Assembly (NCBI GenBank): GCA_031262105.1
Contig: JAISIH010000083.1
Coordinates: 3,219-67,218, forward strand
Direction of reading: 5' to 3'
DNA: 64,000 nt
Source: Ruminococcus sp.
GTDB lineage: Bacteria > Bacillota > Clostridia > Oscillospirales > Ruminococcaceae
Shown here: positions 5,547 through 28,086 of the stretch, piece by piece
Layout of the letters: each line of letters begins with the position of its first letter
How positions within the stretch are numbered: position 1 is the stretch's first letter
Position numbers and translations under genes: made by a program
Notes under the pieces: model-generated
Seen by the model: the letters and a program-made list of their open reading frames with translations, nothing else
Database searches by the model: none
Told to the model about the DNA's origin: nothing

Positions 5547-5568
5547 ACTAAATACTACCCGAAGGGGG

Positions 5569-5922
5569 ATGAAAATTTTGGCTGGCTCAAGGAAATTAGG
5601 GAGAGCTACCGATGCGAGAAAAGCTATGCTTCGCGCAATGGTAACCTACCTTTTAGAATACGGCAAGATTGAAACAACCGTTACTCGCGCCAAGGAAGTA
5701 CGTTCCATGACCGAGATTATGATAACTAAGGCGAAGGCAGGCGACCTTCACGCAAGACGTCAAGTCCTCGCGTACGTTACAAAAGAAGATGTCGTTAAAA
5801 AGCTTTTTGAGGAAATCGCTCCCTCATATAAAGAGCGAAACGGCGGTTACACACGGATTTATAAGATAGGTCCGAGACGCGGCGACGCTGCGGAGATGGC
5901 TATTATTGAATTAGTGAAGTAA
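5569..5922 (+). CDS. rplQ: 50S ribosomal protein L17
   Basis: L17 pattern ([18 protein letters not shown]...GGYTRI). The start is set at ATG 5569, after a GGGGG RBS. The longer track ORF overlaps rpoA. Confidence 0.9.
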
Positions 5923-6449: not shown

Positions 6450-8843
6450 ATGCCGAATGATCCGATTGGATATAAATTGACCTTCTGTAAAAAGCTCTCA
6501 GCGCTTGATAACCCTGTACCCGGTGTGGCATTTGAATATCTAACATTGGCGCACTTCGATGGGATTTTTATAAATGAAATAAAGTGCGTTAGTGATTATA
6601 AAAAGACGTGTTCGGACATCCTACAAGATGGAATAAAGTGGGGCGACCTAACAGCCGACAAACAGAATAAGTTAAATTTTCTTGCGCATTGCGAAAAACA
6701 GGTCGTAAATATCATAACAGAAAACGTCAATAATGATGTGTTAAGTAATCACGATATGCCGATTATGGTGGTCACACTTTTAAATTTCAGTGATGAAAAC
6801 AATTGCAGAAGCCAAAAAATAAATAGTATAAAGAATGCTCTCCAGAATTATATCGGAAATTTAAGTGTCGATTTTGGGGTTTATATGCCGCTGTCTATAG
6901 AGGATTTAGCAATTGTTTTTAAATCCTATACTCTTGAAAGTATTTTAAAGCTTATTACTAATCTAAGAAATCACAAATGTTTTGCTGACGTTATGAATAT
7001 GTATTCCGTAATTTCTTTAGACACAAATTCTGATAAACCCGCTCAGATCGAGGAAATTAACACTTATATAAAGATTCAGGCGGTTCCCCCGACAAGTTTT
7101 CGCGAAATAGCAGATAATTTACCTTCGGTTACGCCGATTGGTGAAGAACGTAATTATAATGACACTAAAGTTGCGGTCGGAAAATATGATATGTATCATA
7201 GAATATCCATAAAAAACACAATGAACTATTATTTTAATTTATACAGAAATATTCTTGATACAAATTCATGCATTTCAAAAAAGTTAGGCGTGTTATCCAC
7301 AGAAACTATAGTAATTAAACCGCTTAACGAGAGCGGTGAAAAAAATCATTTTACCAACCAATTTGCATTTAGCGGAAATATCAATAAACAAAAAAGTTGG
7401 AATGAATGGTATAGACGATTCGAAGAATGTTGGAATAAAGAGTGGGACAAAGGTAATAAAAGTGAAACTAAGAAAAAATATAAAGAATGGTTCCCTACTC
7501 TTTATAAATTTTCTGGTATGCTTAGTGGTCGTGCTCATCGTATATCACACGCTGTTTCTTCTTATAAGTATTTCGAACCATTTTGGGAATTTATTTCTGA
7601 AATAACGAAATTTATTCCGGAATTTATAAAGAGTGAATCAAAAAGAGAAAACTATAATCGCAGCGTTCTAACTGTAAGTGATGAAATCAGATCATTGATT
7701 ACCGGAATTGACGATGTCTTTTCGACGTCTTTCCATGATTTTGAGCAATCGCAAAAAGATGGGTTATGCGTTCACTCTGCCGGAAAGCTTATGGTTGCAT
7801 ATCGGAATTTTGCTGAATTTTTAGGTAATCAATTATTATCTGTTATAGGTCACGACGGTAGACACATTTATTTTTCAATTGTTTCAGCAATAACAGAGAC
7901 CACAAAAATAAACAGATATGACATTAAAGAGAATAAAACGAATAATACATTCTTAACAATACATATGCCGTTTTCAAATATTTACGATTTTCGTGCGGCG
8001 ATTTTTAAGATTTGCCATGAAATTGGGCATTTAATATACGTCACTGATGCTGAAAAAAGCAGATTCAAGGATATATGTAATGAAGGATTAGAGATAGAGA
8101 GTATTAGATTCAGTAATCCCAAAATAGTACATCAACTTAATAAAATACTTGATGAATTTTACGAGGAATTCGCTGCTGATTACTATGCAATTAAAATATT
8201 AGGGCTTGATGTTCTTTATAGTGATCCAAAGCACGATAAAGATGCTGTTTTGAATCAAATTCAAGAAATATTCATGACTGAACTTAATGATAAACAACGA
8301 GCCGGCGTTAACCTTCGATTCCAAGGTATTCGTTTACTCTTACGCCTTCAACCAATGCTAATAAGGGACAAAAAACATGATTTAAACTTAGACAGTTTAA
8401 TAGCTTGGGCGTATCAACCATCTGATGTAATACAAGAACTACTTAATTCCGTAGCCGAAAATGTTATCCCGGTAATTGGGCAGGTAGGTAGCGCCTCTGT
8501 TATTGTTAAAGAAGCAGTAAAATATGCAACTGACGTTAAAAATGTAGAAGAGTTTATTTACCTCAATACGAATATTAGTGAAAAGATTTTTTCTCCGGCA
8601 GCTCTTTACATTTTAAGGCAAAATGAAGATGTAAAATTAATAAATGACATATATACGATCTTAAATAAAAATAAAAAAGAAAATTCAGAATTTCCTTTTC
8701 AAAATCAAATTAACTTTTTCAAAAGCTATAGGGAGCATTTCTTTGATTATAGAAGCGGGAGCTCTTCATATCGAGATGATGTTGTTCCATTTCGAGATTT
8801 TTTGTTAGCCTTTACCGAGCGCAGAAAATACATAGAACTATGA
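6450..8843 (+). CDS. Large (797 aa) hypothetical protein with an HExxH zinc-metallopeptidase-like module (ImmA/IrrE, M78-like), encoded on a low-GC island
   Basis: Long uninterrupted ORF in strongly A/T-rich DNA. HEIGH lies at nt 8016..8030, and EEFAADYYA at nt 8163..8189 about 49 aa later, resembling the HExxH...ExxANxFA signature. No signal peptide or TM segment is evident. Confidence 0.7.
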   Translation: MPNDPIGYKLTFCKKLSALDNPVPGVAFEYLTLAHFDGIFINEIKCVSDYKKTCSDILQDGIKWGDLTADKQNKLNFLAHCEKQVVNIITENVNNDVLSNHDMPIMVVTLLNFSDENNCRSQKINSIKNALQNYIGNLSVDFGVYMPLSIEDLAIVFKSYTLESILKLITNLRNHKCFADVMNMYSVISLDTNSDKPAQIEEINTYIKIQAVPPTSFREIADNLPSVTPIGEERNYNDTKVAVGKYDMYHRISIKNTMNYYFNLYRNILDTNSCISKKLGVLSTETIVIKPLNESGEKNHFTNQFAFSGNINKQKSWNEWYRRFEECWNKEWDKGNKSETKKKYKEWFPTLYKFSGMLSGRAHRISHAVSSYKYFEPFWEFISEITKFIPEFIKSESKRENYNRSVLTVSDEIRSLITGIDDVFSTSFHDFEQSQKDGLCVHSAGKLMVAYRNFAEFLGNQLLSVIGHDGRHIYFSIVSAITETTKINRYDIKENKTNNTFLTIHMPFSNIYDFRAAIFKICHEIGHLIYVTDAEKSRFKDICNEGLEIESIRFSNPKIVHQLNKILDEFYEEFAADYYAIKILGLDVLYSDPKHDKDAVLNQIQEIFMTELNDKQRAGVNLRFQGIRLLLRLQPMLIRDKKHDLNLDSLIAWAYQPSDVIQELLNSVAENVIPVIGQVGSASVIVKEAVKYATDVKNVEEFIYLNTNISEKIFSPAALYILRQNEDVKLINDIYTILNKNKKENSEFPFQNQINFFKSYREHFFDYRSGSSSYRDDVVPFRDFLLAFTERRKYIEL

Positions 8844-8919: not shown

Positions 8920-10113
8920 TTAATGATGAAATAATCTTATCCCCGTAAACGCCATAGCCATGTTATATTTGTTACAGGTTTCGATAACGTTGTCGTCGCG
9001 GATTGAGCCGCCGGGTTCTGCAATGTATTTCACGCCGGAGCGATAGGCGCGTTCGATGTTGTCGCCGAAGGGGAAGAACGCGTCGGAGCCGAGGGCGACG
9101 TCTGTGTTTGTTTTAAGCCATGCTTTTTTTGCTTCGCGTGTGAATTCTGCCGGCTTTACCTTGAAGATGTTCTGCCAAACGCCGTCGGCGAGGACTTCGT
9201 CGGAGTCGTCGGAGATGTAGACGTCGATTGCGTTGTCGCGGTCGGGGCGGCGGATATTGTCCGCAAACTGCAGCCCGAGGACTTCGGGGGACTGCCGCAG
9301 ATACCAGTTATCGGCTTTTTGCCCGGCGAGGCGGGTGCAGTGGATTCGAGACTGCTGACCGGCGCCGATTCCGATTGCCTGACCGTCTTTTACGTAGCAG
9401 ACGGAGTTCGACTGCGTGTATTTTAGGGTTATCAGCGAGATTATAAGATCCTCTAATTTGTCGGCGGGGATATTCTTGTTTTCGGTTACGATATTTTGGA
9501 GCAAATCGGCGTTGATTTTAAGTTCGTTTCTGCCCTGTTCAAAGGTTACGCCGAAGACATCTTTTGTTTCAATCGGCGCGGGAACATAGCTTTCGTCGAT
9601 TTTTACTATGCAATACGTGCCTTTGCGCTTGCTTTTTAGGATTTCGAGAGCCTTTTGGCTGTAGCCCGGGGCGATTATGCCATCCGAAACCTCGACCTGA
9701 ATTAGCTTTGCTGTCGATTCGTCGCACTCGTCCGAGAGGGCGATAAAGTCGCCGTAAGATGACATTCTGTCCGCGCCTCTTGCCCTTGCATATGCGCAAG
9801 CTAAGGGGCTTAGTTCCCCGTCACCTGTGAAATAAATCTTACGGAGCGTGTCTGACAGGGGTCTGCCGACCGCTGCGCCGGCGGGGGAGACGTGCTTGAA
9901 GCTTGTCGCGGCGGGTAAGCCTGTCGCCGCCTTAAGTTCGCGGACAAGCTGCCAGCCATTGAACGCGTCGAGCAGATTTATATAGCCGGGCTTGCCGCAG
10001 AGTACCTCTATGGGGAGGGGGGCGGTGTTTGCGGGGGTTGCGTTCGCGTTTGCGGTTTTGACGTAGACTGACGCGGGTTTCTGATTAGGGTTACAGCCGT
10101 ATTTTAGTTCCAT
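8920..10113 (-). CDS. purH: AICAR formyltransferase (PurH C-terminal-domain-only type)
   Basis: 397 aa. Ends with the canonical GSDAFFPFGDNIE...PGGSIRDDNVI...AMAFTGIRLFHH. It lacks the N-terminal MGS/IMP-cyclohydrolase domain. Confidence 0.85.
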   Translation of the reverse strand: MELKYGCNPNQKPASVYVKTANANATPANTAPLPIEVLCGKPGYINLLDAFNGWQLVRELKAATGLPAATSFKHVSPAGAAVGRPLSDTLRKIYFTGDGELSPLACAYARARGADRMSSYGDFIALSDECDESTAKLIQVEVSDGIIAPGYSQKALEILKSKRKGTYCIVKIDESYVPAPIETKDVFGVTFEQGRNELKINADLLQNIVTENKNIPADKLEDLIISLITLKYTQSNSVCYVKDGQAIGIGAGQQSRIHCTRLAGQKADNWYLRQSPEVLGLQFADNIRRPDRDNAIDVYISDDSDEVLADGVWQNIFKVKPAEFTREAKKAWLKTNTDVALGSDAFFPFGDNIERAYRSGVKYIAEPGGSIRDDNVIETCNKYNMAMAFTGIRLFHH

Positions 10114-10121
10114 TTTTGCAC

Positions 10122-10829
10122 CTACACATTTTTATTTACGATCTTGTCTTGGTATGTTCCTGTCGCAATGTCAATATACCTTACAAAAAGGGAGATTTTA
10201 TTCGCTTCGTTTAGGTTATCCCACAAGCCCTGTGTAAATTCGCCGATGTCGTCGGGGATAGAAATTGCCGTCGGTTCGCCGGAGAAAACCTCAGGCGGGT
10301 TTCCGTCGCACTTATATGTATGGATAAAATGCCCGGTTCCCGCTACTGCCGGCTTGTATGTAAATAAGAAGCGATTGCAGGATTCGGGGTTGCCGCTTGC
10401 AGATTTTAGGATTGAGAGGGCATAGTTAAAATTATTATTCGTTAGCCTTATAATCCCGGAAATTCGCGGGGTATAGATCGGGGGGTCGGGTTCAAATTCC
10501 CGGCATTGTAAGCTTTCTTCAAAGGTTTTTTGAGCGTCGAGCCCGTTATAGATTGTGTCGGTCTGGTCGCCGTTCGTGACTATGGTCTTGTTCCCCAAAA
10601 CGCGAACGGCGTTATAGATTACAAGGCTCGGGTCGGACATCTTCGACGGGTCGAAAGCCTCTGTGCGTATGCCGTCGGCGGTTTTTACGAAGATTCTGTT
10701 GCGGCTGTTTTCACTCCTACCCATGATGAAATAGGCGGTTACAGCGTGCTTGCCGTCAGGGGTTGCTCCTATAATTATACCACGCCCGGGATAGCTATTA
10801 TTTGCAAGTAATTCTTTTATATCCTTCAT
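10122..10829 (-). CDS. IMP cyclohydrolase, PurO-like (archaeal type)
   Basis: About 235 aa, immediately upstream of the formyltransferase-only purH. N-terminal YPGRGIIIG-type sequence. The start is set at MKDIKEL (10829), so it does not overlap peptide gene P1. Confidence 0.7.
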   Translation of the reverse strand: MKDIKELLANNSYPGRGIIIGATPDGKHAVTAYFIMGRSENSRNRIFVKTADGIRTEAFDPSKMSDPSLVIYNAVRVLGNKTIVTNGDQTDTIYNGLDAQKTFEESLQCREFEPDPPIYTPRISGIIRLTNNNFNYALSILKSASGNPESCNRFLFTYKPAVAGTGHFIHTYKCDGNPPEVFSGEPTAISIPDDIGEFTQGLWDNLNEANKISLFVRYIDIATGTYQDKIVNKNV

Positions 10830-10845: not shown

Positions 10846-11145
10846 TTACCAAGCCGCTTGATTCTGGCAGAAGAGTTCCTTTGTTTCCTCATCGAACACA
10901 CTCTTCATGCAAAGGCGGCATAGGCGGTTTTTATTATTAATGTTTGCCGCGTCGAAGTATTCGCAGGTTTCTGCTTTTTCGTTCGGGACGAGTTTATATT
11001 TGGGACCGTTGCAAAAAAGCCCGCCGCCCGTAACCGCGAGGTTTTCAAGCTCTTCGTCCGAAAGGGTTATGTATTTATCCGCCTGTTCGTCTGTAATTTC
11101 TATGCCGCGTTCACGCGCTTTCGCGATTAGTTCATCCTTTTTCAT
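10846..11145 (-). CDS. Array member P1: long-leader double-glycine Cys-rich precursor peptide (99 aa)
   Basis: Leader MKKDELIAKARERGIEITDEQADKYITLSDEELENLAVTGG. The core has C, CEYF, CRLC and C, and ends QAAW. Own GGAGG RBS. Confidence 0.8.
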   Translation of the reverse strand: MKKDELIAKARERGIEITDEQADKYITLSDEELENLAVTGGGLFCNGPKYKLVPNEKAETCEYFDAANINNKNRLCRLCMKSVFDEETKELFCQNQAAW

Positions 11146-11166
11146 GACGATACCTCCATGTAAATT

Positions 11167-11523
11167 CTACCAAGCTTTTTTATTAGTACAGAAGAGTTCC
11201 CCTGTTTCCAGATCGCGCGAACTACTTTTGCAGGCGCGGCATACGCGGGTTTCATTAAAAATGCTTGCCGAGTCGAAGTATTCGCAGTTTTTTGCCCTTT
11301 CGTTCGTGACCGGCTTAGAAAAGGATTCGCCGCAAATGTCCGCGCCGCCGACGATGTTTTCGAGTTCTTCGTCCGAAATAGACGAGTGCTTTATAACTCT
11401 GCCGCCCGAAACGGCGAAGCCTTCAAGCTGTTCATCCGAAAGCACGGAAAATTTCTCCGCCTGTTCGTCTGTGAGAGTTATGCCGCGTTCCGCCGCTTTT
11501 TTTATAAGTTCTTCCTTTTTCAT
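11167..11523 (-). CDS. Array member P2: precursor with two consecutive double-glycine leader motifs (118 aa)
   Basis: MKKEELIKKAAERGITLTDEQAEKFSVLSDEQLEGFAVSGG, then RVIKHSSISDEELENIVGG, then a core with C, CEYF, CRAC and C, ending KKAW. The start is taken at ATG 11523; the track begins at 11538. Confidence 0.75.
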   Translation of the reverse strand: MKKEELIKKAAERGITLTDEQAEKFSVLSDEQLEGFAVSGGRVIKHSSISDEELENIVGGADICGESFSKPVTNERAKNCEYFDSASIFNETRVCRACKSSSRDLETGELFCTNKKAW

Positions 11524-11544
11524 GATGCCGCCTTTCAAAAAGTT

Positions 11545-11862
11545 TTAGTCCGGGTAAGCTTCCTTGCTCTGACAGTAGCAGTATGAGTATTCAAGCCCGC
11601 GAACGGTGCGTTCTTTGGTATAGCAGTGCAGACAATAATTGCATTTGACCGGGTCGCTGTCGGTCGAGTCCGCTCTCCTTACGAAGTATGCGCAGGTTTT
11701 TGCTTCATTTGGGGCAACTCTTTTTCCGTCCTCGCCGCAGCCGCCCGCTACCGCGAGGTTTTCAAGCTCATCGTCCGAAAGGGTTATGTATTTATCCGCC
11801 TGTGTCTCGTCAATCGCTATGCCGCGATCACGCGCCTTTTTAATAAGGTCGTCTTTTTTCAT
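11545..11862 (-). CDS. Array member P3 (105 aa)
   Basis: Leader MKKDDLIKKARDRGIAIDETQADKYITLSDDELENLAVAGG. Core: C...CAYF...CNYCLHC...CYC. Confidence 0.8.
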   Translation of the reverse strand: MKKDDLIKKARDRGIAIDETQADKYITLSDDELENLAVAGGCGEDGKRVAPNEAKTCAYFVRRADSTDSDPVKCNYCLHCYTKERTVRGLEYSYCYCQSKEAYPD

Positions 11863-11880
11863 GATAAAAACCTCCTGTGC

Positions 11881-12198
11881 TTACATATAATTAGAATATA
11901 CGCCTATTTTGCAGTAACAATAGCTCATAGGATATGCGTAAACCCTTTCACTATGTTTGCACGAAAGACAGGTACCATCGTTCTCGTCGTCTTTTTTGCT
12001 GTAACTGGAACAGCGTTTTCCCTTGTTTACATCCTCAACTCTTACGCTGCCTTTCGACGGTTGGCATCGATCTATGCCGCCCGCAACCGCTAAGTTTTCA
12101 AGTTCTTCGTCGGAAAGGGTTATGTATTTGTCCGCCTGTGTCTCGTCGATTTCTATGCCGCGTTCACGCGCCATTTTGATAAGGTCTTCTTTTTTCAT
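11881..12198 (-). CDS. Array member P4 (105 aa)
   Basis: Leader MKKEDLIKMARERGIEIDETQADKYITLSDEELENLAVAGG. Core: C...CSSY...CLSC...CYC. Confidence 0.8.
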   Translation of the reverse strand: MKKEDLIKMARERGIEIDETQADKYITLSDEELENLAVAGGIDRCQPSKGSVRVEDVNKGKRCSSYSKKDDENDGTCLSCKHSERVYAYPMSYCYCKIGVYSNYM

Positions 12199-12214
12199 CT
12201 GTTTGTCCTCCTTC

Positions 12215-12532
12215 TTATTGCCACGCTTCCGCGCAGAGGCAGTAATTTTGTACTATGGGGATATCAAGACTCGGCATCAGGGTTATTGTATCAAAGTGAG
12301 TGCAATAGGTGCATTTTAGCCCTTCATTCGACGGCTTCGCGCTGACAAATTTAGTACAGGTTTGCGCGTAGTTAATATTGTCGAGTTTGTGTCTGTATTT
12401 TTCGTTGCAACCCCCCGCGACCGCAAGGTTTTCAAGCTCGTCATCCGAGAGGGCTATGTATTTATCCGCCTGTGTTTCGTCGATCGCTATGCCGCGTTCA
12501 TGTGCCTTCTTGATAAGGTCTTCTTTTTTCAT
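12215..12532 (-). CDS. Array member P5 (105 aa)
   Basis: Leader MKKEDLIKKAHERGIAIDETQADKYIALSDDELENLAVAGG. Core: C...CTKF...CTYC...CLCAEAWQ. Confidence 0.8.
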   Translation of the reverse strand: MKKEDLIKKAHERGIAIDETQADKYIALSDDELENLAVAGGCNEKYRHKLDNINYAQTCTKFVSAKPSNEGLKCTYCTHFDTITLMPSLDIPIVQNYCLCAEAWQ

Positions 12533-12556
12533 GAAAAATCCTCCTTTATTAATAGC

Positions 12557-12835
12557 TTAAAAAGTTCTTAACTGCGGGTCATGCTCCCAGCCTTTTTCTG
12601 CGCAGGTATGCACCCCGGACACATCTTTAATGTTCGGGCAATTTGTGCAGGTTGAAGTCTTCCAAAACTTCGCTTCGGTTATGCCTTGCGAACACTTTTC
12701 AAGGCAATAATCAGGACCTCCGCCGGCGATGTTTTCAAGCTCTTCGTCCGAGAGGTTTAGGTATTTCTCTGCCTCTGTCTCAGTCAGGGTTATTCCGCGA
12801 GCGGCGGCTTTTTTTATCAGGTCTTCTTTCGTCAT
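12557..12835 (-). CDS. Array member P6 (92 aa)
   Basis: Leader MTKEDLIKKAAARGITLTETEAEKYLNLSDEELENIAGGG. Core: CLEKC...CTNC...C. Confidence 0.8.
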   Translation of the reverse strand: MTKEDLIKKAAARGITLTETEAEKYLNLSDEELENIAGGGPDYCLEKCSQGITEAKFWKTSTCTNCPNIKDVSGVHTCAEKGWEHDPQLRTF

Positions 12836-12850
12836 GATTTCCCTCCGCGC

Positions 12851-13072
12851 TTATACATTTTTTGTACAATGATAGGTAGTGGCTTTGCCGAAACAACCTG
12901 CGGCTTCTACGTAAATGTAGGTGCAGTTATCGCACAGACGTTCGCTGGTCCCCGGCTTCGGCTCGAAGTATTTGCAGTTCTCCGCGATGTCGAATTTAAC
13001 TACAACCCTGTTTGCCCCCGCAGATATGTTTTCAAGTTCTTCATCGGAAAGGTTAATGTTTTCTTTTTTCAT
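12851..13072 (-). CDS. Array member P7: truncated leader (73 aa)
   Basis: MKKENINLSDEELENISAGA lacks the N-terminal helix and has Ala-Gly-Ala (ISAGA) instead of GG at the predicted site. Core: CKYF...CDNC...C...C. The start is set at 13072 to avoid overlap with P8. Confidence 0.7.
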   Translation of the reverse strand: MKKENINLSDEELENISAGANRVVVKFDIAENCKYFEPKPGTSERLCDNCTYIYVEAAGCFGKATTYHCTKNV

Positions 13073-13085
13073 AGTCAAAACCTCA

Positions 13086-13385
13086 CTAATTCCAAGCTTC
13101 TTCAAGGGTACACCAAAGGCTTGAGAGTGTTTCGGAGTCTATCCTTGCGTGGGAGCAATTGCCGCAAATTTGGACAGATCTCTTCGGATCGAAGACACTG
13201 TAGTAACGGCAAGTAAGTGCCTTGTTCCCGTCCGTTATTTCTTTTTTGAAACCGCAGAAGCCTCCGCCCGCTATGTCGAGGTTTTCGAGTTCCTCATCGG
13301 AGAGGTTAACGTACTTCTCCGCCTGTTCCTCGGTTAAGGCTACGCCCTGTTCTGCGGCTTTTTTTATAAGGTCGGACTTTTTCAT
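13086..13385 (-). CDS. Array member P8 (99 aa)
   Basis: Leader MKKSDLIKKAAEQGVALTEEQAEKYVNLSDEELENLDIAGGG. Core: C...CRYY...CGNC...C, ending EEAWN. Confidence 0.8.
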   Translation of the reverse strand: MKKSDLIKKAAEQGVALTEEQAEKYVNLSDEELENLDIAGGGFCGFKKEITDGNKALTCRYYSVFDPKRSVQICGNCSHARIDSETLSSLWCTLEEAWN

Positions 13386-13421
13386 AGCAAACCTCCTTTT
13401 AGTTAACCGGTGCTGTCCGGG

Positions 13422-13715
13422 TTATGCCCTGTAAGTTTTTATGACTGTCATCATCTGATCGCAATGCACAACGGTTGATATCGGTCTGCCGAGGCTATCG
13501 CAGGCACCATAATAGGGAACCTTTATCATCTTTTCCCCGCAGATTTCGCAAATAATATCCATATAAGGTTCAGTGCAAATATCATCCACAAGTCCGCCGC
13601 CGCCCACAATGTTCTCAAGCTCTTCTTCCGAAAGGTTTATGTACTTCTCCGCCTGTTCGTCGGTGAGGGTAATTCCGCGCTCACGCGCCTTTTTTATAAG
13701 GTCTTCTTTTTTCAT
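13422..13715 (-). CDS. Array member P9 (97 aa)
   Basis: Leader MKKEDLIKKARERGITLTDEQAEKYINLSEEELENIVGGGG. Core: C...CEIC...C...C. Confidence 0.8.
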   Translation of the reverse strand: MKKEDLIKKARERGITLTDEQAEKYINLSEEELENIVGGGGLVDDICTEPYMDIICEICGEKMIKVPYYGACDSLGRPISTVVHCDQMMTVIKTYRA

Positions 13716-13729
13716 GGTTTACCCTCCTG

Positions 13730-13957
13730 TTAATTCCACGCTTCTGCGCAGGTGCAATAAAGGCTGCTCGAGGTTCGTTTTACCTTTTTACAGCGGTCGC
13801 ACTGCTTATAATTTCTTTCTATGTCGGTTTCGTAGTAACTGCATTTTTCCGCTTCATAGCCCATGACATACTTATTAAATTTAACCGCCCCGCCCGAAAC
13901 GGTTAAGTTTTCAAGCTCCTCTTCCGATACAGCCGGTTTTTGTGCTTCTTTTTCCAT
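13730..13957 (-). CDS. Array member P10: second leader class (75 aa)
   Basis: Leader MEKEAQKPAVSEEELENLTVSGG. Core: CSYY...CDRC...CTCAEAWN. Confidence 0.75.
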   Translation of the reverse strand: MEKEAQKPAVSEEELENLTVSGGAVKFNKYVMGYEAEKCSYYETDIERNYKQCDRCKKVKRTSSSLYCTCAEAWN

Positions 13958-13978
13958 AAGTTTACCTCCGATAAAATA

Positions 13979-14272
13979 TTACACATTCCGTGCGAATAAA
14001 ACCATTCTGTTAACTTCGGTATTTGAGCAGAAAATCTGCCCGGTTTCATAATTACCGTAGTAGTCGCACGACCAGCAGTTTTGCTTCACGCCCGGCGTCG
14101 GATTTGCCCCGTGCCACTTGCCGCATATCATTCCGGCAGTATCGGCGTTGTTTATCAAGACAAACGAATCGTCGTACACCATCTCTCCGAATGCAGGAGA
14201 GCTCCCTGCGCCGCCGGCAACTGCGTCAAGCTCTTCTTCCGATACAGCCGGCTTTTGCACTTCTTTTTCCAT
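13979..14272 (-). CDS. Array member P11: second leader class (97 aa)
   Basis: Leader MEKEVQKPAVSEEELDAVAGG. Core: C...CWSC...C. The start is set at ATG 14272 (GGGAGGG RBS), 20 nt after the purN stop. The track ORF extends into purN. Confidence 0.7.
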   Translation of the reverse strand: MEKEVQKPAVSEEELDAVAGGAGSSPAFGEMVYDDSFVLINNADTAGMICGKWHGANPTPGVKQNCWSCDYYGNYETGQIFCSNTEVNRMVLFARNV

Positions 14273-14292: not shown

Positions 14293-14871
14293 CTATAACT
14301 TCGCACAAAGTTTTTCTACCGCTTCCGGCAGGATGACCCATTCTGCCTCTTCCATGACGCGTCTCTGTAACGTCTCGGGGGTGTCATTGTCCCTTACCTC
14401 GACCGCCTTTTGTGCCAGAATCGGTCCGCCGTCACATTCGGGCGTTACAATATGCACTGTCGCGCCGGTTATCTTTACGCCGCGTTTTAAGGCTTCTTCA
14501 TGCACCTTTAAGCCGTAATATCCGACGCCGCAAAAACTCGGGATTAACGCCGGGTGGACATTAACTATCCGCCCCTTGAAAACCGCGCAAAAGCTGTCGT
14601 CGAGGACTGTCATAAACCCCGCGAGGACTATTACGTCGATATCCTGCTCCAAAAAAAGCTGTATAAGTTCTTCGGAATAACTTTTGCTGTCGGGGAAATT
14701 CTTGCGCGGGAGGGTTAACGTCTTAATCCCGGCGTTCTCGGCGCGGGTTAAGGCAAAAGCCCCCTCCTTGCTCGAAACAACAAGAACAATCTCGCCGCTT
14801 TTTAGCTTATAGTCAATGAGTGCCTGTAAATTCGTTCCCCCGCCCGAGACCAAGACCGCTATTCTTTTCAT
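14293..14871 (-). CDS. purN: Phosphoribosylglycinamide formyltransferase
   Basis: MKRIAVLVSGGGTNLQALID start, NVHPALIP motif, position after purM. Confidence 0.9.
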   Translation of the reverse strand: MKRIAVLVSGGGTNLQALIDYKLKSGEIVLVVSSKEGAFALTRAENAGIKTLTLPRKNFPDSKSYSEELIQLFLEQDIDVIVLAGFMTVLDDSFCAVFKGRIVNVHPALIPSFCGVGYYGLKVHEEALKRGVKITGATVHIVTPECDGGPILAQKAVEVRDNDTPETLQRRVMEEAEWVILPEAVEKLCAKL

Positions 14872-14875
14872 AATC

Positions 14876-15916
14876 CTAAAGCCCGTTCACAACGATTTTT
14901 TCATCGCCGGTCGAGATTTCGCCCAAGACATAGCTTTCCTCGCCCGCCGCATTAAGGGTTGCAATAGCCCGCTCTGCATCTTCCGGCGCGGTAACAATTA
15001 CCATTCCCACGCCCATATTGAACGTGTTATACATATCGCGGATGGGTATCTTGCCCGTTTCCATAATCAGGTCGAAAATCGGGAGCGTTTTAACGTTCGC
15101 AATATCAATATTCGCGCAAAGCCCGTCTTTTATCGCACGGGGAATGTTCTCGAAAAAGCCGCCGCCGGTTATATTGGCGATGCCTTTAACGTTAACCTTC
15201 GAGATAAGCTCTAAAATCGGTTTAACGTAAATTTTCGTCGGGACCAAAAGCGCGTCGCCCAAGTTCTGCCCGATTTCGGAATAGTGGCGCGAGATGTTCT
15301 GGTGGTTAAGCGCGAAGACCTTCCGTACCAGCGAAAAGCCGTTTGAATGAAGCCCGGAAGACCGCACGGCAATTAAAACGTCGCCGGCTTTTTGCCCCTC
15401 GGTCGAGATTATCTTTTTCTTATCGACAATCCCGACAGCGAAACCGGCGATGTCGTATTCGTCCTCGGGATAAAAATCCGGCATCTCCGCCGTCTCCCCT
15501 CCGACGAGGGCGCATCCCGCCTGAACACAGCCGTCCGCAACGCCCTTCACAATCTGTTCAATCCGCAGCGGAATATTCTTCCCGCAGGCGATATAATCGA
15601 GGAAGAAAAGCGGTTTCGCTCCCGCGCAGATTATGTCATTAACACACATGGCAACCGCGTCAATCCCGATTGTGTTATGGCGGTCGGTTAAGAACGCCGC
15701 CTTGAGTTTTGTCCCCACGCCGTCGGTCCCCGAAACGAGGACAGGTTCTTCCATCCCGGCGAAATCCGGCGCGAAAAGCCCGCCGAAGCCGCCGATGTCC
15801 GTCAAAACCCCGGGAACGCGCGTTCTTGCGACGTGTTTTTTTATAAGTTCGGTCGATTCATACCCGGCGGTAATGTCCACGCCGGCTTCTTTATAACTAT
15901 CTGAAAAGCTGTACAT
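14876..15916 (-). CDS. purM: Phosphoribosylformylglycinamidine cyclo-ligase (AIR synthetase)
   Basis: YKEAGVDI, GIGGFGGLF-type and DGVGTK motifs; 346 aa. Confidence 0.95.
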   Translation of the reverse strand: MYSFSDSYKEAGVDITAGYESTELIKKHVARTRVPGVLTDIGGFGGLFAPDFAGMEEPVLVSGTDGVGTKLKAAFLTDRHNTIGIDAVAMCVNDIICAGAKPLFFLDYIACGKNIPLRIEQIVKGVADGCVQAGCALVGGETAEMPDFYPEDEYDIAGFAVGIVDKKKIISTEGQKAGDVLIAVRSSGLHSNGFSLVRKVFALNHQNISRHYSEIGQNLGDALLVPTKIYVKPILELISKVNVKGIANITGGGFFENIPRAIKDGLCANIDIANVKTLPIFDLIMETGKIPIRDMYNTFNMGVGMVIVTAPEDAERAIATLNAAGEESYVLGEISTGDEKIVVNGL

Positions 15917-15967: not shown

Positions 15968-15996
15968 ATTATACGATATTAAATTTCATTTGTCAA
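15968..15996 (-). promoter_or_regulatory. Consensus sigma-A-type promoter for the purM operon
   Basis: On the minus strand: TTGACA (15996..15991), a 17-nt spacer, then TATAAT (15973..15968). It lies about 50 nt upstream of the purM ATG. Confidence 0.6.
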
Positions 15997-16068: not shown

Positions 16069-16097
16069 TTGACGGTAAGTTTTTTGGGGCGTATAAT
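16069..16097 (+). promoter_or_regulatory. Sigma-A-type promoter for the stefin-like gene
   Basis: TTGACG, a 17-nt spacer, then TATAAT. It lies about 45 nt upstream of ATG 16141. Confidence 0.55.
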
Positions 16098-16140: not shown

Positions 16141-16725
16141 ATGGGAACTACTATGCTTGCGGGCGGTTACAAAGTTGACATTGCTGTCGGAGCATTACCG
16201 CAGAAGGTTGCGACATACGGAATGGAAGTCTTAAACGATCTCGTCGGCGCGAAATATGAGCCGGTTGCTTATCTCGGGAGTCAGGTTGTTAACGGCATTA
16301 ACCATGCGATCCTTACCGTTCAGACGCTTGTGACCGCCTCACCTGTGAAATCGCTTCGCGTTGTTGTGCTTAACGAAAAGCCCTCTTCCGAAACAAAATC
16401 CGATTTCACAATCGTAACCATCGGCTCGCCGCTCCTTACATACGCTTCTCCCGGCATGACCGGCGGATATGCAGAGCCGGAAGATTTCGCGAAAACCGCC
16501 CCCGAAGCGGCTGCTCTTTGGAGCAAGTGCCGTCAGCCGATCGGCAAAACCTACGACACCAAGTGCGTTTTAGGCACACAGGTTGTTGCCGGGACAAATT
16601 ATGCTATCCTCGCCGAATCCAAGGTTGTTGCGCCCGGCGCGGTTGCCGAAGCTTCAATCCTCTACCTTTGGTCTAAACTCGACGGGACTGTTGAACTTAA
16701 TGATATTGCGGACATTGATTTTTAG
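16141..16725 (+). CDS. Tandem two-domain stefin/cystatin-like protein (putative cysteine-protease inhibitor), no signal peptide
   Basis: Two internal repeats, each with an N-terminal GGY and a QxVxG loop. These are QVVNG (nt 16282..16296) and QVVAGTNYAIL (nt 16579..), which is near-identical to the stefin QVVAGTNY signature. Confidence 0.6.
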   Translation: MGTTMLAGGYKVDIAVGALPQKVATYGMEVLNDLVGAKYEPVAYLGSQVVNGINHAILTVQTLVTASPVKSLRVVVLNEKPSSETKSDFTIVTIGSPLLTYASPGMTGGYAEPEDFAKTAPEAAALWSKCRQPIGKTYDTKCVLGTQVVAGTNYAILAESKVVAPGAVAEASILYLWSKLDGTVELNDIADIDF

Positions 16726-17196: not shown

Positions 17197-18489
17197 TTAC
17201 AGTGTCTCCGCTACTGCCGCTGCAATCTTAGTGCGGTCTACTACGCCCCAGAATGCGGGTTTTGCTATGAGGTCGCGGTCGAAGAGGAGGGGGTGGTTGG
17301 TTCTGCCGGTTACGGGGTAGTCGTTTAGCCATGTCATGCCGTCGTTGAAGCCCCACATTATTACTGCTTCGAGGTTGCCTTTTGCGGCTTCTTCGCGGAA
17401 CATATCGAAGAGGTCGGCGTAACGTTCGGCGAGCATTGTTTCATTCTCTGCGTTCATGTCGATGGTTTTGCTCTGGTCGTTCCATGAGTACATTGAGACG
17501 TCGAGTTCGGTTACTTGAATTATGAGGTCGGGGTTAAGCTCTTTGAGGGTCGCGAGCTTTTCGATGGCTGCCTTGAAATTATTGACATCAGGCCAGCCGA
17601 TTTGAATGTGGGCTTGGATGCCTACGCCGTCTATCGGAACGCCCTGTTCGAGCATTGATTTGACCGCTTCATAGAAGGAGTTTAACTTGTTCGGGTCTTG
17701 TTCTAAGCTGTAGTCGTTGATGATAAGCTTCGCGTCGGGGTCTGCGGCGCGGGCAATGTAGAATGCCTGCTCCATGAAGTCGTATTCGTCACCGTCGCCG
17801 TCAAGGTCGCCGACGATGCCGGGCCAGAACGAGCCCTCGCCCATCTCACGCATACCCCTGCCGGAGTCGGAAAATGCCTCGTTCACGACGTCGTAGTAAG
17901 CAATCTTGCCTTTATAACGCCCCATGACTGTGTTTATGTATTCGGTCATGCGGGCGATAAGCTCGTCGGAGGTTGCCCTGCCGTCTTCTCCGCTGCCCTC
18001 AAACCACCACTGCGGCGCTTGGGAATGCCAAACGAGGGTGTGTCCGCGAAGCTTTACTTCGGGATTCTCTTCGCCGAACTTTACGAATAAATCGGGGGCG
18101 GTGAAGTCGAAAACGCCCTTCGCGGGGTTAACGTACATGGGCTTCATCTCGTTTTCGGTCGTGAAGATGTTGTAGTGCTTCTTGATAATTTCGGCGGAGG
18201 CTGTTCCGTCTTCAAGCTGAACTGTGTTAACCGCTGTTCCTATGAGGAAATCGTCTGCAAACACGTCTTTGAGGTTCGGGAGTGCCTCTGCGTAGGCGGG
18301 GAGGCGATATTCTTTTCCGTCAAATTTACTTTCAAGGGTTGTAACTTCCGGGGTTTCGGCGGTTGCTTGTCCGGCTGTGGTTTGATCGACTGCCGGCGCT
18401 ATTGTTGTGTTATCTCCTGCGGTTACTGTGCAGGCGGTGAGCAGCATTGTTAATGCAAGCGCGGCGACTGCGGGCTTAAAAAATTTCAT
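17197..18489 (-). CDS. GH10 endo-1,4-beta-xylanase, lipoprotein
   Basis: Lipobox LLTAC at the N-terminus. GH10 motifs HTLVWHSQ, DVVNEA (acid/base Glu) and ITELDV (nucleophile Glu). Confidence 0.9.
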   Translation of the reverse strand: MKFFKPAVAALALTMLLTACTVTAGDNTTIAPAVDQTTAGQATAETPEVTTLESKFDGKEYRLPAYAEALPNLKDVFADDFLIGTAVNTVQLEDGTASAEIIKKHYNIFTTENEMKPMYVNPAKGVFDFTAPDLFVKFGEENPEVKLRGHTLVWHSQAPQWWFEGSGEDGRATSDELIARMTEYINTVMGRYKGKIAYYDVVNEAFSDSGRGMREMGEGSFWPGIVGDLDGDGDEYDFMEQAFYIARAADPDAKLIINDYSLEQDPNKLNSFYEAVKSMLEQGVPIDGVGIQAHIQIGWPDVNNFKAAIEKLATLKELNPDLIIQVTELDVSMYSWNDQSKTIDMNAENETMLAERYADLFDMFREEAAKGNLEAVIMWGFNDGMTWLNDYPVTGRTNHPLLFDRDLIAKPAFWGVVDRTKIAAAVAETL

Positions 18490-24459: not shown

Positions 24460-27400
24460 TTACTTTGTCTTAGTTGTGGATATCATCATTGTGCCGGCTT
24501 TTTCCGACTCGAAGATGATGTTGCCGTTCTTGTAAAGACCTGCGGAACGGGTTATGCTTCCGTCTGCGCCTTTAACCATGATGTAGATTATCTTGCCGCC
24601 GTTAAAGTCTTCGCAATCCTCGAAGATTGCTTCATCGAGACCGAGAGCTTCGGCACTCATGATATATCTTACATCGGTTCCGAAATCCTTCTTTTGCTTT
24701 GTCTCGAAGGATGCAACGACGGTTGCGGGAGTGCCTGCTGTTGCCGCTTCGATAACTGCGGGGTCGGCGTCAACAACGCCTGTGTAGGTTGCGCCCATTT
24801 CGGAATTTAGGGGGATAACCATTCTGAGTACCAAATTGCCGTCGGCGTCTTCAAAATTCTGAGCAACAGTCACGGTCATTCCCTCGGGAACTGCCGCCAC
24901 GAGCTTATCGATTGCGGTTGCTGAAAGCCCTGCAACCTCCTCGTCAACGTTTACTGTAACCTTTGTTTCGCCCTTCTCCGCCGCGATTTCAGCCGCCGCT
25001 TCTACAGCCGCCGCCGTCGCCGCGGAATTGAGAGAGCCGGACTGGTTAACCGCCGCGTCTACTGTGCCGTTATTGTTTAAGGTTGCGGATGCGTTGCCGG
25101 ATTCAAAAGTTTCAGCTACGCCGCCGTTGTCGTTTGAACTGCCGGTTGAGCCGCTGCCGCTACTTGAACTGCCGGTTGAGCCTGTGCCGGTTGACGGTGC
25201 TGCGGGAACTACAGGAACAGGTGAGGGTGCGGGTGAGCCGCCCGAAGATGAGCCGCTTCCGCTTGAACTGCCGCCGCCCGAAGATGAGCCGCCGCCGGAA
25301 GTTGAAGTTGTAACAACGATGCTTATGCTTTGTGATGAAGCTTTATATAGATCGCTTCCTGCGAAGGAGAATTCAATTGTCTGATAGCCGGTTGCCGCTG
25401 TTCCGATTGTTGCTATGCCGTATTGATTTTGAACTGTGCCGTTTACGGTTGTGGTTATTGCGCCGGAAACTATATTGCCGTTTTCGTCATAGACTGTTGC
25501 GATGATCTCGTAGTTGCCGGTATTTACCAAGAGTGTGTTGCCGGAAGGCAAGCCGGTAACTGTGATTGTTGTTTTAAGCGGGGTAACTTCGGGGACTTCC
25601 GCTTCGGTAACTGTAACGGTTGCTGTGCCGGATTTGGTTGTGTCAACCGTTGATGTTGCCGTAACTGTGAGGGTTGAAGCTGTTTCGTCAGCGGCTACGA
25701 TAAGCACGCCGGCAGAAGTTATCGAACTCTTTGTGCCGGAAACCGCCCATGTCACAGTCTGCGCGGGGCTGTTCGTGCCGGTAACTGCCGCTGTAAACGT
25801 CTGTGTGCCGCCCTTTTCTACAATTGCCGCCGCCGGGGTTACTGCTACGGAGGTTACTGTTGCGGCGGGGTCGGGATCGGGAACTACGGGGGCAGCCACT
25901 ACTTTATAAACGGTTACGGTTAGGTATGTCGGATCAAATGCAAACGTGTCTTTTGCAAGATCAACCCTTACGGTCGCGCCGTTTGCTACTGTAATATTGC
26001 TGATTGCGAGGGTGTATGTTCCGCCGCCTTCATCTGTTAATGCGCCTTTTGTTGCGCCTGTGAGTGTTACATCTGCTTCTGCCAAGTTAATGTCGCTTGA
26101 AAGTTCAATAGTAAGTTCGGTAGTGGTTGTTGAGCCGCTTACGCCGTTTGCGGTTAAGCTTTCAAAGTCAACCGGTGTGCGGGTGTCTTTATAGACTGCA
26201 ACATCCACGGGTTCATTACTTACATCGAAAACTCCGAAATCGGTTAACGTTAATGTTACATTGCCTTCGGCGGTTACGTTTGTAATTCCGATTGTGTATA
26301 CCGTGCTTGACGTTGCGGTAAGAGTGCCTTCTGTAGCTCCTGTGCCTATAGCTATGTCATTAGCTGTAAGCCCTGTAACTGCTTCACCGAATGTAATCCG
26401 AATGCCTGTACTGTCAGCTGTTCCGGTTGCGCCGCCTACTTGTACGGCTTCAAAAGTTACCGGTGTAGCGTCAGCCTGTACAGTTACTTGTATTTTATAG
26501 ATGAGTACCGATTCGTCTTCTGCGGTGACTTGTATCCAAACGTATTGTCCGTTCTCAATCGCTTGTGACGTCCAACTGCCATAAGATCCCGGGTCTGTGT
26601 TGCCCGTGGTATAAGCATATTTTACGTCAGCAAATTGACTTGTTTTTACTGCTAAAAATTCAGTCACAGTAGCATTTGCACTAAGTATTGAGACCGTTCC
26701 TGTTTCTGCCGCATCATATGTCTCAGCAGGGTCTCCGAGGGCAATTGCGGTGCCCGCGAGGGTTGCGGAAGTAATTGTCGCATCATCGTCGGCTTCTACC
26801 GTTACGGTTGCGGCAGTCGAGGTTTTATCTTCCGCGCCGTCTGAACTTACTACAACATAGTAGTAATGAGGTCCTACGGCGAGGTCTGTCGGGAGTGCGT
26901 AAGTAGCGGAGTTTGTGTCGTTAATAGTTGCACCGTCACCTGTATTTGTATCACTGTCGCTATACCATTGATAATTAGGAGTTGCGCCATTTGAAACTGT
27001 TGCAGTAACTGTGAGGTTTGCGGTTTCGCCATGTGTAACGGTTATTGTACTTGCCGGTTGACCGCTTATTGTGATTTCGGGTGCGGCACCAATCACCAGA
27101 GAAAATGTTCCTGTCGCCTCTGTTCCGTTAAGAGTCATAGTATGTGTAGTTGATCCTGCTGCTGCTGTAGCTCCGACAGTAAGCGTGAGTGTGCCGTCGC
27201 CTTGTCCGTCTATTGTTACAGCTGCCGCCGATACCTCGGACGGTAACGCGGGATCAAAGGTCGGGGTGTATTCTGATGCGGATATATTCGTTGTGTCCAC
27301 AGCGTAAGTTAGTTCGCCGCCTATACCTGCGGTTGCTGTGCCGGTTTGTGTTGCGGCGATGGAGACTGTGGGTACCGCATTAACCGTCACGGTTACGGCA

Positions 27401-28086
27401 CTTGAGGTCGCTGTTGCGCCTGATGTGCCTGAATCGCTTACTACAACATAGTAGTAATGATTACCTACGGCGAGGTCGTTGGGGAGTGAGTAAGTGGCAG
27501 TCGTTGCGCCGTCAATGGGTGTGCCGCCGGTTGCATCTGTATCTTCGTCGCTATACCATACATAACTAAGTTCTAAGTCATCCGGTGTAGGATCAACGGT
27601 AACTGTGAGGTCTGCTGTTCCGCCCGCTGTAATGGTTGCTCCTGACGGACCGGTTAAGGAGATACTGGCTTCAGAAATAACTACATCAAATGTCGCCGTT
27701 ACTTCATTAATTGTAAGTGTAACATTTGTAGTTCCTGCGGCTGCTGTTGAGTTATCTACAGTAAGGGTAAGTTCGCCTGTAAATACGTCTGCATTATTTG
27801 CAATGGTTACTTTACTGTCGGTGTTTGCAATAGTTACGCCGTCCGGCAATGTTACAACCGTAACAACATATTCCGCGGCTTCCATATCCGTTGTGGTCAC
27901 GGTATAGGTTAGAGTTCCGCCTATCCCTGCATATACTGTTTCAGTTTGTGCGGAGACACTTGCACTGCCTGCCGCCGCGAGTTTAAGTCCAAAATCTATA
28001 CCCCCCGGCAAAGCGCCTGTGAAAAGGCTTAGGGCGAGGGAGAATGCGCAGAGAATTGCTAATAATCGTTTCCTTGAAAGTACCAT
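24460..28086 (-). CDS. Large secreted cell-surface protein, paralog 1 (1208 aa): Thr-rich Ig-like repeats, Gly/Ser linker, conserved C-terminal domain
   Basis: Signal peptide MVLSRKRLLAILCAFSLALSLF. Repeated beta-rich modules (..YQWYSD..ATYALPTDLAVGPHYYYVVV..). One Big_2-like module. A GGGSSSGGGSS linker. The roughly 220-aa C-terminal domain is shared with paralog 2. Confidence 0.85.
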   Translation of the reverse strand: MVLSRKRLLAILCAFSLALSLFTGALPGGIDFGLKLAAAGSASVSAQTETVYAGIGGTLTYTVTTTDMEAAEYVVTVVTLPDGVTIANTDSKVTIANNADVFTGELTLTVDNSTAAAGTTNVTLTINEVTATFDVVISEASISLTGPSGATITAGGTADLTVTVDPTPDDLELSYVWYSDEDTDATGGTPIDGATTATYSLPNDLAVGNHYYYVVVSDSGTSGATATSSAVTVTVNAVPTVSIAATQTGTATAGIGGELTYAVDTTNISASEYTPTFDPALPSEVSAAAVTIDGQGDGTLTLTVGATAAAGSTTHTMTLNGTEATGTFSLVIGAAPEITISGQPASTITVTHGETANLTVTATVSNGATPNYQWYSDSDTNTGDGATINDTNSATYALPTDLAVGPHYYYVVVSSDGAEDKTSTAATVTVEADDDATITSATLAGTAIALGDPAETYDAAETGTVSILSANATVTEFLAVKTSQFADVKYAYTTGNTDPGSYGSWTSQAIENGQYVWIQVTAEDESVLIYKIQVTVQADATPVTFEAVQVGGATGTADSTGIRITFGEAVTGLTANDIAIGTGATEGTLTATSSTVYTIGITNVTAEGNVTLTLTDFGVFDVSNEPVDVAVYKDTRTPVDFESLTANGVSGSTTTTELTIELSSDINLAEADVTLTGATKGALTDEGGGTYTLAISNITVANGATVRVDLAKDTFAFDPTYLTVTVYKVVAAPVVPDPDPAATVTSVAVTPAAAIVEKGGTQTFTAAVTGTNSPAQTVTWAVSGTKSSITSAGVLIVAADETASTLTVTATSTVDTTKSGTATVTVTEAEVPEVTPLKTTITVTGLPSGNTLLVNTGNYEIIATVYDENGNIVSGAITTTVNGTVQNQYGIATIGTAATGYQTIEFSFAGSDLYKASSQSISIVVTTSTSGGGSSSGGGSSSGSGSSSGGSPAPSPVPVVPAAPSTGTGSTGSSSSGSGSTGSSNDNGGVAETFESGNASATLNNNGTVDAAVNQSGSLNSAATAAAVEAAAEIAAEKGETKVTVNVDEEVAGLSATAIDKLVAAVPEGMTVTVAQNFEDADGNLVLRMVIPLNSEMGATYTGVVDADPAVIEAATAGTPATVVASFETKQKKDFGTDVRYIMSAEALGLDEAIFEDCEDFNGGKIIYIMVKGADGSITRSAGLYKNGNIIFESEKAGTMMISTTKTK

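Follow-up and report, generated by a model that had tools for sequence, protein, structure and literature searches.

Cleavage at double-glycine (GG) leaders followed by export through peptidase-containing ATP-binding cassette (ABC) transporters (PCATs) is familiar from whole families of secreted peptides, and the GG box suffices for PCAT export. In the prochlorosins of Prochlorococcus (ProcA/ProcM), one modifying system serves many scattered precursor genes with conserved leaders, hypervariable cores and free ring patterns. Systems that combine a Nif11-like leader, many precursors, a radical S-adenosylmethionine (rSAM) enzyme and a PCAT exporter are already known. Ruminococcin C, from a gut 'Ruminococcus', is encoded by several tandem precursor genes (PMC6779426). 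We analysed a stretch of 64,000 nucleotides (the window) from a metagenome-assembled genome (MAG) of Ruminococcus sp., contig JAISIH010000083.1, in which 11 tandem open reading frames (ORFs) on the minus strand, at 10846-14272, encode short Cys-rich peptides with a common leader. Our results suggest, with a probability of about 0.68, that this array is a trans-serviced multi-precursor system of the RiPP type (peptides made on the ribosome and then modified) with a truncated Nif11-like leader.

An earlier reading of the array (the original prediction) had taken the cores for disulfide- or metal-stabilised mini-proteins with diversifying loops. Eight of the window cores share a main scaffold, C0-~17 residues-A-x-x-C1-x-[YF]-[YF]-~14-C2xxC3-~15-[YF]-C4-T-N-x-x-A-W, whose extra conserved Cys, C0, lies 0-5 residues past the GG and had gone unmentioned. 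Each gene has its own GGAGG-type ribosome-binding site (RBS), and the gaps between genes are 13-36 nt. Coordinates are positions in the window, and the genes are numbered W_01 to W_11 along the minus strand from 14272 down to 10846 (lengths in amino acids, aa):

W_01, 13979..14272, minus strand: precursor with short leader 14210-14272, MEKEVQKPAVSEEELDAVAGG, and core 13982-14209 (76 aa, 4 Cys) of the class 'FGE..MICG.W..NCWSC..C..VLFARNV'
W_02, 13730..13957, minus strand: precursor with short leader 13889-13957 and core 13733-13888 (52 aa, 5 Cys), main scaffold, C-terminus AEAWN
W_03, 13422..13715, minus strand: precursor with long leader 13593-13715 and core 13425-13592 (56 aa, 5 Cys) of an odd class, C-x8-CEIC-x12-C-x12-C, with no alignment to the main scaffold
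W_04, 13086..13385, minus strand: precursor with long leader 13260-13385 and core 13089-13259 (57 aa, 5 Cys), main scaffold, C-terminus EEAWN
W_05, 12851..13072, minus strand: precursor with minimal leader 13016-13072, MKKENINLSDEELENISAG, and core 12854-13015 (54 aa, 5 Cys), main scaffold without C0
W_06, 12557..12835, minus strand: precursor with long leader 12716-12835 and core 12560-12715 (52 aa, 5 Cys) of the class 'CxxxC..FWKTSTCxNC..GVHTC'
W_07, 12215..12532, minus strand: precursor with long leader 12410-12532 and core 12218-12409 (64 aa, 6 Cys), main scaffold, C-terminus CLCAEAWQ
W_08, 11881..12198, minus strand: precursor with long leader 12076-12198 and core 11884-12075 (64 aa, 6 Cys), main scaffold
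W_09, 11545..11862, minus strand: precursor with long leader 11740-11862 and core 11548-11739 (64 aa, 7 Cys, CNYCLHC), main scaffold
W_10, 11167..11523, minus strand: precursor with a leader carrying a duplicated GG box, 11344-11523, and core 11170-11343 (58 aa, 5 Cys), main scaffold, C-terminus KKAW
W_11 (LBM59_07670), 10846..11145, minus strand: precursor with long leader 11020-11145 and core 10849-11019 (57 aa, 5 Cys), main scaffold, C-terminus QAAW

The leaders are Cys-free in all 11 window precursors. Eight products start with the ~40-residue leader MKKEDLIKKARERGIxxxExQAxKYIxLSDEELENLAVAGG, while W_01, W_02 and W_05 retain only the SxEELExxxxGG box; the double-glycine motif LS(D/E)EELE(N)xxxGG was found in all 11 peptides, with AG instead of GG in W_05. 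The W_10 leader holds two GG boxes in tandem, ..LSDEQLEGFAVSGG-RVIKHSSI-SDEELENIVGG.., a partial internal leader duplication. The Nif11-leader model TIGR03798 matched 7 of 10 peptides at 12.6-26.1 bits, all below its cut-off of 32.3 bits, with the best score for W_06 (26.1 bits, E=8e-6) and no match for the other three. By hhalign, using as comparison bona fide Nif11-type leaders that include two above the TIGR03798 cut-off (34.8 and 39.5 bits), leader residues 2-43 and the GG site aligned with a probability of 98.0% (E=2e-13), and the family leader corresponded to the C-terminal half of the Nif11-type leaders from distant rSAM loci. On this alignment the leader is best described as a truncated Nif11-like leader. 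Models of GG-bacteriocins gave weak leader matches, Bacteriocin_IIc and Lactococcin only at E of at least 0.05 and over the GG box only, and membership of a class II bacteriocin family was not found for the window peptides.

Among the window paralogues the leader has 69% aa identity and the cores 24% (19% outside the Cys). The synonymous difference of the leader, pS, is high (0.55, range 0.31-0.78) despite this identity, so the leader is kept by protein-level selection, and gene conversion as the source of its conservation is ruled out; between orthologues pS is saturated.

The candidate enzymes were detected at the second loci of two sister genomes, bin138 (locus L007) and bin171 (locus L009). 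Precursors with the same leader and the same scaffold adjoin there an ABC exporter pair, a small membrane ORF and a gene for an rSAM protein with a SPASM domain:

L007 11207-12757 and L009 5892-7415: rSAM/SPASM proteins of 506-516 aa (Pfam Radical_SAM, Fer4_12, SPASM)
L007 10966-11217 (-) and L009 5533-5802 (-): conserved single-pass membrane ORFs of 83-89 aa, between exporter and rSAM gene, 65% identity

The original prediction had held that the cores do not look like short lanthipeptide or sactipeptide cores; the implication that they lie outside RiPP-type systems and are no rSAM substrates finds no support in the position of same-family precursors beside an rSAM/SPASM gene, a C39 exporter and a partner ABC protein in two sister genomes. 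The C39-peptidase ABC exporter scored 878 bits against TIGR03796 (cut-off 853), and the partner ABC protein scored 697 bits against TIGR03797, just below the cut-off of 709. The match of the 83-89-aa ORF to HlyD of the NHLP system (TIGR03794, E=2e-4) is confined to the first ~40 residues of HlyD, so we take the ORF for a minimal remnant or adaptor. The rSAM protein carries the motifs CNYRCKHC and, in its C-terminal SPASM region, CxxCx5CxGGC; among solved relatives the thioether synthase SkfB comes out best (E=1.4e-9), and the rSAM protein's ~85-aa N-terminal extension is in register with the SkfB extension.

The close rSAM clade comprises seven proteins, all from the same metagenome as the peptide family, and this co-distribution supports the RiPP-type reading. 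One of them, MDR0904203, is encoded two accessions from a PCAT, MDR0904205, on one contig of 28,340 bp, and MDR0904205 shares 90% identity or more with the exporter of bin138. Both numbers fall between the accessions of LBM59_03620 and LBM59_07670 (W_11), so the rSAM/exporter cluster is assigned to the window's own MAG.

More distant rSAM relatives (25-36% identity) are flanked by multiple Nif11-leader, Cys-rich precursors, many with a Cys directly after the GG, and this wider rSAM/precursor family appears uncharacterised. At L010 (6190-7874), L019 (4685-10486), L020, L022, L030 and L043, the distant rSAM genes stand beside 3-6 full-length Nif11-leader precursors, the cores of which have three CxCxxGGxG repeats or 8-10 Cys; at L032, L033 and L035 the cores are Zn-ribbon-like. 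A scan with the rSAM protein of a metagenome collection that excludes the source metagenome gave only relatives of 25-30% identity.

In the mechanism that we propose, the array would be transcribed within a purM-purN-array-purO-purH operon from the promoter at 15996-15968, co-transcription being predicted from gene order, and each gene would be translated from its own RBS. The leader would recruit the rSAM/SPASM protein MDR0904203, encoded on another contig, which would modify the Cys-containing core, most plausibly by introducing Cys-derived thioether cross-links; such thioethers would lock the mini-fold in the anoxic gut, where disulfides are unreliable. The C39-domain NHLP-type exporter MDR0904205 and its partner ABC protein would then cleave after the GG and export the core. 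The cell would thus secrete a mixture of 11 mini-proteins that share one scaffold and differ in surface, probably for antagonism or signalling, with expression tied to the purine operon. The logic, by analogy, would be that of one enzyme and many substrates as in the prochlorosins, with a fixed Cys framework.

The cores of 52-77 aa carry, in gene order, 4, 5, 5, 5, 5, 5, 6, 6, 7, 5 and 5 Cys, the 4-7 and often odd numbers of the original prediction; across the arrays Cys makes up 8.1% of core residues. The scaffold is far from random, as had been claimed: C-x11-21-CxxC-x5-24-C is present in 10 of the 11 cores, compared with a mean of 0.68 in 20,000 composition-preserving shuffles, none of which reached 10, and CxxC is present in all 11, compared with a shuffled mean of 3.6. 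The claim of exactly one central CxxC held for its presence in every core and failed in its detail, since W_09 has two overlapping ones (CNYCLHC) and the CEIC of W_03 is unaligned. A C-x-[YF]-[YF]-like upstream context (8/11 cores) and a C-terminal AW, AWN or AWQ (5/11) were both recovered. W_01 and W_06 belong to distinct core classes, yet keep the spacing.

Conservation of the Cys in related genomes, the lack of which would have refuted the original prediction, was confirmed: in alignments of 32-34 main-class members from several genomes the four scaffold Cys are invariant or at least 90% conserved. Loop lengths had been described as completely different between neighbours; in 53 anchored cores they turned out to be constrained, with 12-20 residues between C1 and C2 (median 14) and 6-21 between C3 and C4 (median 15). 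The Cys-anchored consensus is A-x-x-C1-x-[YF]-[YF]; C2-x-(N)-C3-x-(H); [LIV]-[YFW]-C4-T-N-x-x-A-W, with A at -3 of C1 in 42/52 anchored cores, an aromatic residue at +3 in 50/53, Y, F or W before C4 in 37/53, and A-W after C4. Among 73 non-redundant peptides from all arrays, 61 fit C..CxxC..C (51 of them with C-x-[YFW]), 7 are Zn-ribbon-like with CxxC..CxxC, and 7 are otherwise different. In the same 73 peptides C0 occurs in 58/65 with a long leader versus 1/8 with a short leader (Fisher p=1.5e-5, uncorrected for relatedness), which hints that C0 and the helical part of the leader work together, for example with C0 as a modification site.

A few sister-array genes (L001 8560-8718, 10623-10832 and 11755-11964; L009 236-472) combine a normal leader with a short single-Cys core, having the Cys at or beside the C-terminus (..NFCD, ..VQIC, ..DLCD) or only a leader-proximal Cys; here the leader carries another class of product.

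AlphaFold2 with family alignments was run on W_11 and W_04, the cores of which are ~31% identical. Both models show a three-helix leader, a disordered GG linker and a compact core with a short strand, a short helix that ends at C1, a CxxC turn and a beta-hairpin that ends at C4 (beta-alpha-knuckle-hairpin), with predicted local distance difference test (pLDDT) values for the core of 76-87 in W_11 and 78-85 in W_04. Foldseek searches of the PDB with the two models gave best hits at E=2.4 and 5.5; no hit reached 0.001, and no Zn-ribbon was matched. A single CxxC takes the place of two knuckles in the window cores, and no Zn-ribbon model matched them. Pfam on 34 family members gave weak leader-type matches only, and no Zn-ribbon family recurred. 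The folded mini-protein look noted originally is borne out by the conserved hydrophobic and aromatic Cys flanks and by the same predicted topology for two such divergent cores, and in these models the cores look like folded mini-proteins without a known fold. FmdB-type Zn-ribbon cores were detected on the same leader in sister arrays, with PF09723 scores of 31.8 and 25.6 bits (cut-off 34.4); only the sister-array peptides P0035 and P0046 come near the PF09723 threshold.

These features are also what would be expected of unmodified secreted mini-proteins, the view behind the original prediction, in which the cores fold by themselves on Zn(Cys)4 or disulfides, a GG leader and a PCAT are all that is required, and the rSAM protein is irrelevant or touches only the Cys near the cleavage site. 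We consider this explanation possible, although unlikely. The four Cys, invariant, constrained in their spacing and flanked by conserved hydrophobic residues, the consistent AlphaFold2 mini-fold, the FmdB-type Zn-ribbon cores on the same leader together with the Zn-ribbon-like cores in distant relatives, and the retention in W_01, W_02 and W_05 of a GG box without the helical leader or C0 all agree with it. It fits poorly with the strong purifying selection on the helical leader part (69% versus 24% identity in the cores), unneeded for export alone, and with the rSAM/SPASM gene that lies beside same-family precursors and the exporter in every such locus recovered. The lack of a Zn-ribbon or other known fold in the Foldseek comparisons and the single CxxC per window core also speak against this explanation, and extracellular disulfides would be fragile in an anoxic gut.

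Several points count against the trans-serviced RiPP-type system. According to Pfam, no rSAM, LanM or peptidase-ABC exporter is encoded among the window ORFs of at least 150 aa, so the rSAM/PCAT cluster is linked to the array in trans, by leader identity and co-occurrence, and its assignment to the same genome depends on how the MAG was binned and on the order of accessions. No immunity gene was found anywhere in the 64-kb window. The rSAM protein falls below every NCBIfam equivalog cut-off, with the best scores, ~100-105 bits, against NirJ1/AhbD-type models; its scores against sacti- and ranthisynthase models were 65-77 bits for StsB (cut-off 625), 60 for SkfB (300), 59 for AlbA (850) and 56 for PapB (340). 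Its N-terminal 90 residues gave no Pfam match at E of 1 or below, neither to PqqD nor to any other RiPP recognition element. A metal-binding fold would account no less well than a thioether network for the wide Cys spacing, the conserved aromatic flanks and the occurrence of Zn-ribbon cores behind the same leader, and W_01, W_02 and W_05, with leaders that have no helical part, may bypass the maturase.

Mini-protein fold and modification may also coexist, for instance through thioether stapling or a change at C0. More speculatively, the array could be a genetically encoded library of folded 4-Cys mini-proteins (52-77 aa), as opposed to short peptides, on a common leader, with the uncharacterised rSAM clade acting at C0 and/or stapling the fold and with secretion coupled to nucleotide demand. 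This tentative proposal would imply interchangeable domains that include both a fold without detectable relatives and bona fide Zn-ribbons, hard-wired in a purine operon, and thus a RiPP/protein hybrid class whose regulation would be unusual.

The history of the cores bears on whether the array functions at all. Four window cores have orthologues in other arrays: W_01 in L003_03 (82% core identity, dN/dS 0.32), W_02 in L001_12 (52%, 0.33), W_04 in L001_18 (76%, 0.21) and W_06 in L001_19 (60%, 0.25); for the other 7 of the 11 no orthologue above 40% was found. The predicted diversification of the loops is in keeping with the 24% identity of paralogous cores but not with the purifying selection seen in the four orthologous pairs, and whole-core positive selection was not seen (dN/dS 0.21-0.33). 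W_10 and W_11 are taken for a recent tandem duplicate because their core DNA is 71% identical. The pattern is one of gene birth and death, in which duplication and loss add to old divergence and each core that survives is under constraint.

That the array is non-functional, a decaying gene-cluster remnant or a set of spurious ORFs, is the least credible of the alternatives and carries next to no weight with us. The absence of cognate enzymes from the window, the duplicated leader box of W_10 and the truncated cores of several sister-array members could be read in this way; none of the 11 reading frames is broken, however, and each has its RBS, the scaffold greatly exceeds what chance would give, leader and core both show dN/dS well below 1, and essential downstream pur genes depend on transcription through the array.

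The array lies within a set of purine biosynthesis genes, all on the minus strand, in the order purM, purN, the 11 precursor genes, a PurO-like IMP cyclohydrolase gene and an AICAR formyltransferase gene:

15968..15996, minus strand: sigma-70 promoter TTGACA-17-TATAAT, upstream of purM, 12/12 match to consensus
14876..15916, minus strand: purM (AIR synthase; Pfam AIRS and AIRS_C, E=1e-28 to 1e-35)
14293..14871, minus strand: purN (GAR formyltransferase; Pfam Formyl_trans_N, E=9e-46)
10122..10829, minus strand: IMP cyclohydrolase, PurO-like (Pfam IMP_cyclohyd, E=6e-65)
8920..10113, minus strand: purH-like AICAR formyltransferase, last gene of the operon (Pfam AICARFT_IMPCHas, E=1e-57)

The purN stop is 20 nt upstream of W_01 (junction TAG-AAATACGGGAGGGTAAAACC-ATG), and the IMP cyclohydrolase gene starts 16 nt past the W_11 stop (junction TAA-ATTAAAGAAGGTAAAA-ATG), both junctions containing an RBS. 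From the promoter down to 8920, no minus-strand terminator-like site was detected in the array and a single weak one inside purM; the promoter at 15996-15968 likely drives a purM-purN-array-purO-purH transcript. An Rfam scan of the whole window found no riboswitch and no other RNA family, and within the array there is no small membrane gene of the immunity type.

The profile of the 11 peptides detected ~50 proteins among 5.8 billion, all in MAGs or contigs of Ruminococcus sp. from one Joint Genome Institute (JGI) metagenome, and of 185,579 species-representative genomes only two, Hm464_bin138 and Hm464_bin171, have it. The sample Hm464 came from the gut of the lower termite Hodotermes mossambicus (PMC10684969). 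In four contigs the array lies at an identical position, with purN on one side and the IMP cyclohydrolase gene on the other, with 11 genes in the window, 20 in L001, 14 in L003 and 6 in L004. A core-only profile gave 13 matches among 1.84 billion representatives, all in the same family, and nothing significant among PDB sequences. No earlier description of the peptide family was found in the searchable literature. NCBI annotates one family member as DUF2624.

The operon context invites the explanation that the peptides are intracellular small Cys/Zn proteins of purine metabolism or its regulation, their 'leader' being a structural helix-hairpin domain. The tight junctions of 16-20 nt inside the pur operon, the position kept in four contigs and the DUF2624 annotation agree with such a role, which we nevertheless regard as very improbable: the LSDEELENxxxGG box is homologous to Nif11 and GG leaders, same-family genes also occur outside pur operons beside a C39 exporter and an rSAM gene, a copy number of 6-20 with most cores lacking orthologues is atypical of a housekeeping regulator, and no other species that has these pur genes carries the family.

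Other features of the surroundings were also observed. The perfect promoter (15968-15996, minus strand) and a near-perfect sigma-70 promoter (16069-16097, plus strand) diverge between purM and an unannotated 194-aa ORF (16141-16725) with no family match. On the other side, an ORF of 797 aa (6450-8843, plus strand) with a HEIGH (HExxH-like) motif lies in a 32% GC island between rplQ (~5566-5922) and purH; neither Pfam nor NCBIfam gave a match for it, and it looks like an insertion specific to the window genome because purH and rplQ are only 272 nt apart in L004. Two large proteins of 1208 and 1158 aa (24460-28086 and 28366-31842, both minus strand) with Ig-like, CBM_X2 and InlB B-repeat domains are encoded near a glycoside hydrolase family 10 (GH10) xylanase (17197-18489), and this region is consistent with a fibre-degrading, cellulosome-type Ruminococcus.

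If the RiPP-type reading of the array is correct, it would add an uncharacterised rSAM clade and a new family of Cys-scaffold mini-proteins to the Nif11/NHLP-type RiPPs. One leader carries several unrelated Cys folds, including Zn-ribbons, so the maturase and exporter appear highly substrate-tolerant, a property useful for peptide and mini-protein engineering. It is also an unusual case of natural-product precursors fixed in a housekeeping operon across several genomes, and it raises the testable question of whether secondary peptide output is coupled to nucleotide metabolism in a termite-gut fibre degrader.

Compared with the Nif11/NHLP RiPP systems (TIGR03798, TIGR03796, TIGR03797, TIGR03794), the locus and its relatives share leader homology, the GG box, paired ABC exporters near or at the cut-offs, an HlyD-like fragment and numerous precursor paralogues in which the leader is conserved and the core diverges. 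They differ in an array leader of ~40 aa, about half the usual length and below the TIGR03798 cut-off, in cores that are Cys-scaffold mini-proteins of 52-77 aa, in a main array placed in a purine operon apart from the enzymes, and in an HlyD partner reduced to a membrane stub of ~85 aa. With the prochlorosins they have in common one system for many precursors located away from it, conserved leaders and hypervariable cores, whereas the enzyme is an rSAM/SPASM protein and not LanM, the framework of 4-5 Cys is fixed, and the genes form a single tandem array in a housekeeping operon. Sactipeptides and ranthipeptides (subtilosin/AlbA, SKF/SkfB, ruminococcin C/RumMC, freyrasin/PapB, SCIFF/CteB) likewise combine Cys-rich precursors with an N-extended rSAM/SPASM protein; here, by contrast, the rSAM protein has no equivalog-level match (56-85 bits versus cut-offs of 300-850), the Cys of the array lie 13-17 residues apart over a core of 50-77 aa instead of being clustered, the leader is of the GG/Nif11 kind, and the cross-links are putative. 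The FmdB-type zinc ribbons (PF09723, Zn_ribbon_8) are resembled by the sister-array peptides P0035, P0039, P0046, P0047 and L003_10, with CxxC-x17-22-CxxC and 25.6-31.8 bits, and not by the window cores, which have one CxxC and two single Cys and match neither a Zn-ribbon model nor, by Foldseek, a Zn-ribbon structure. Taken together, what is new relative to these known systems is the half-length leader, the core family without detectable relatives, the sharing of one leader by several unrelated Cys folds, the rSAM clade, which is uncharacterised, and the location, conserved between contigs, of 6-20 precursor genes within an operon for purine biosynthesis.

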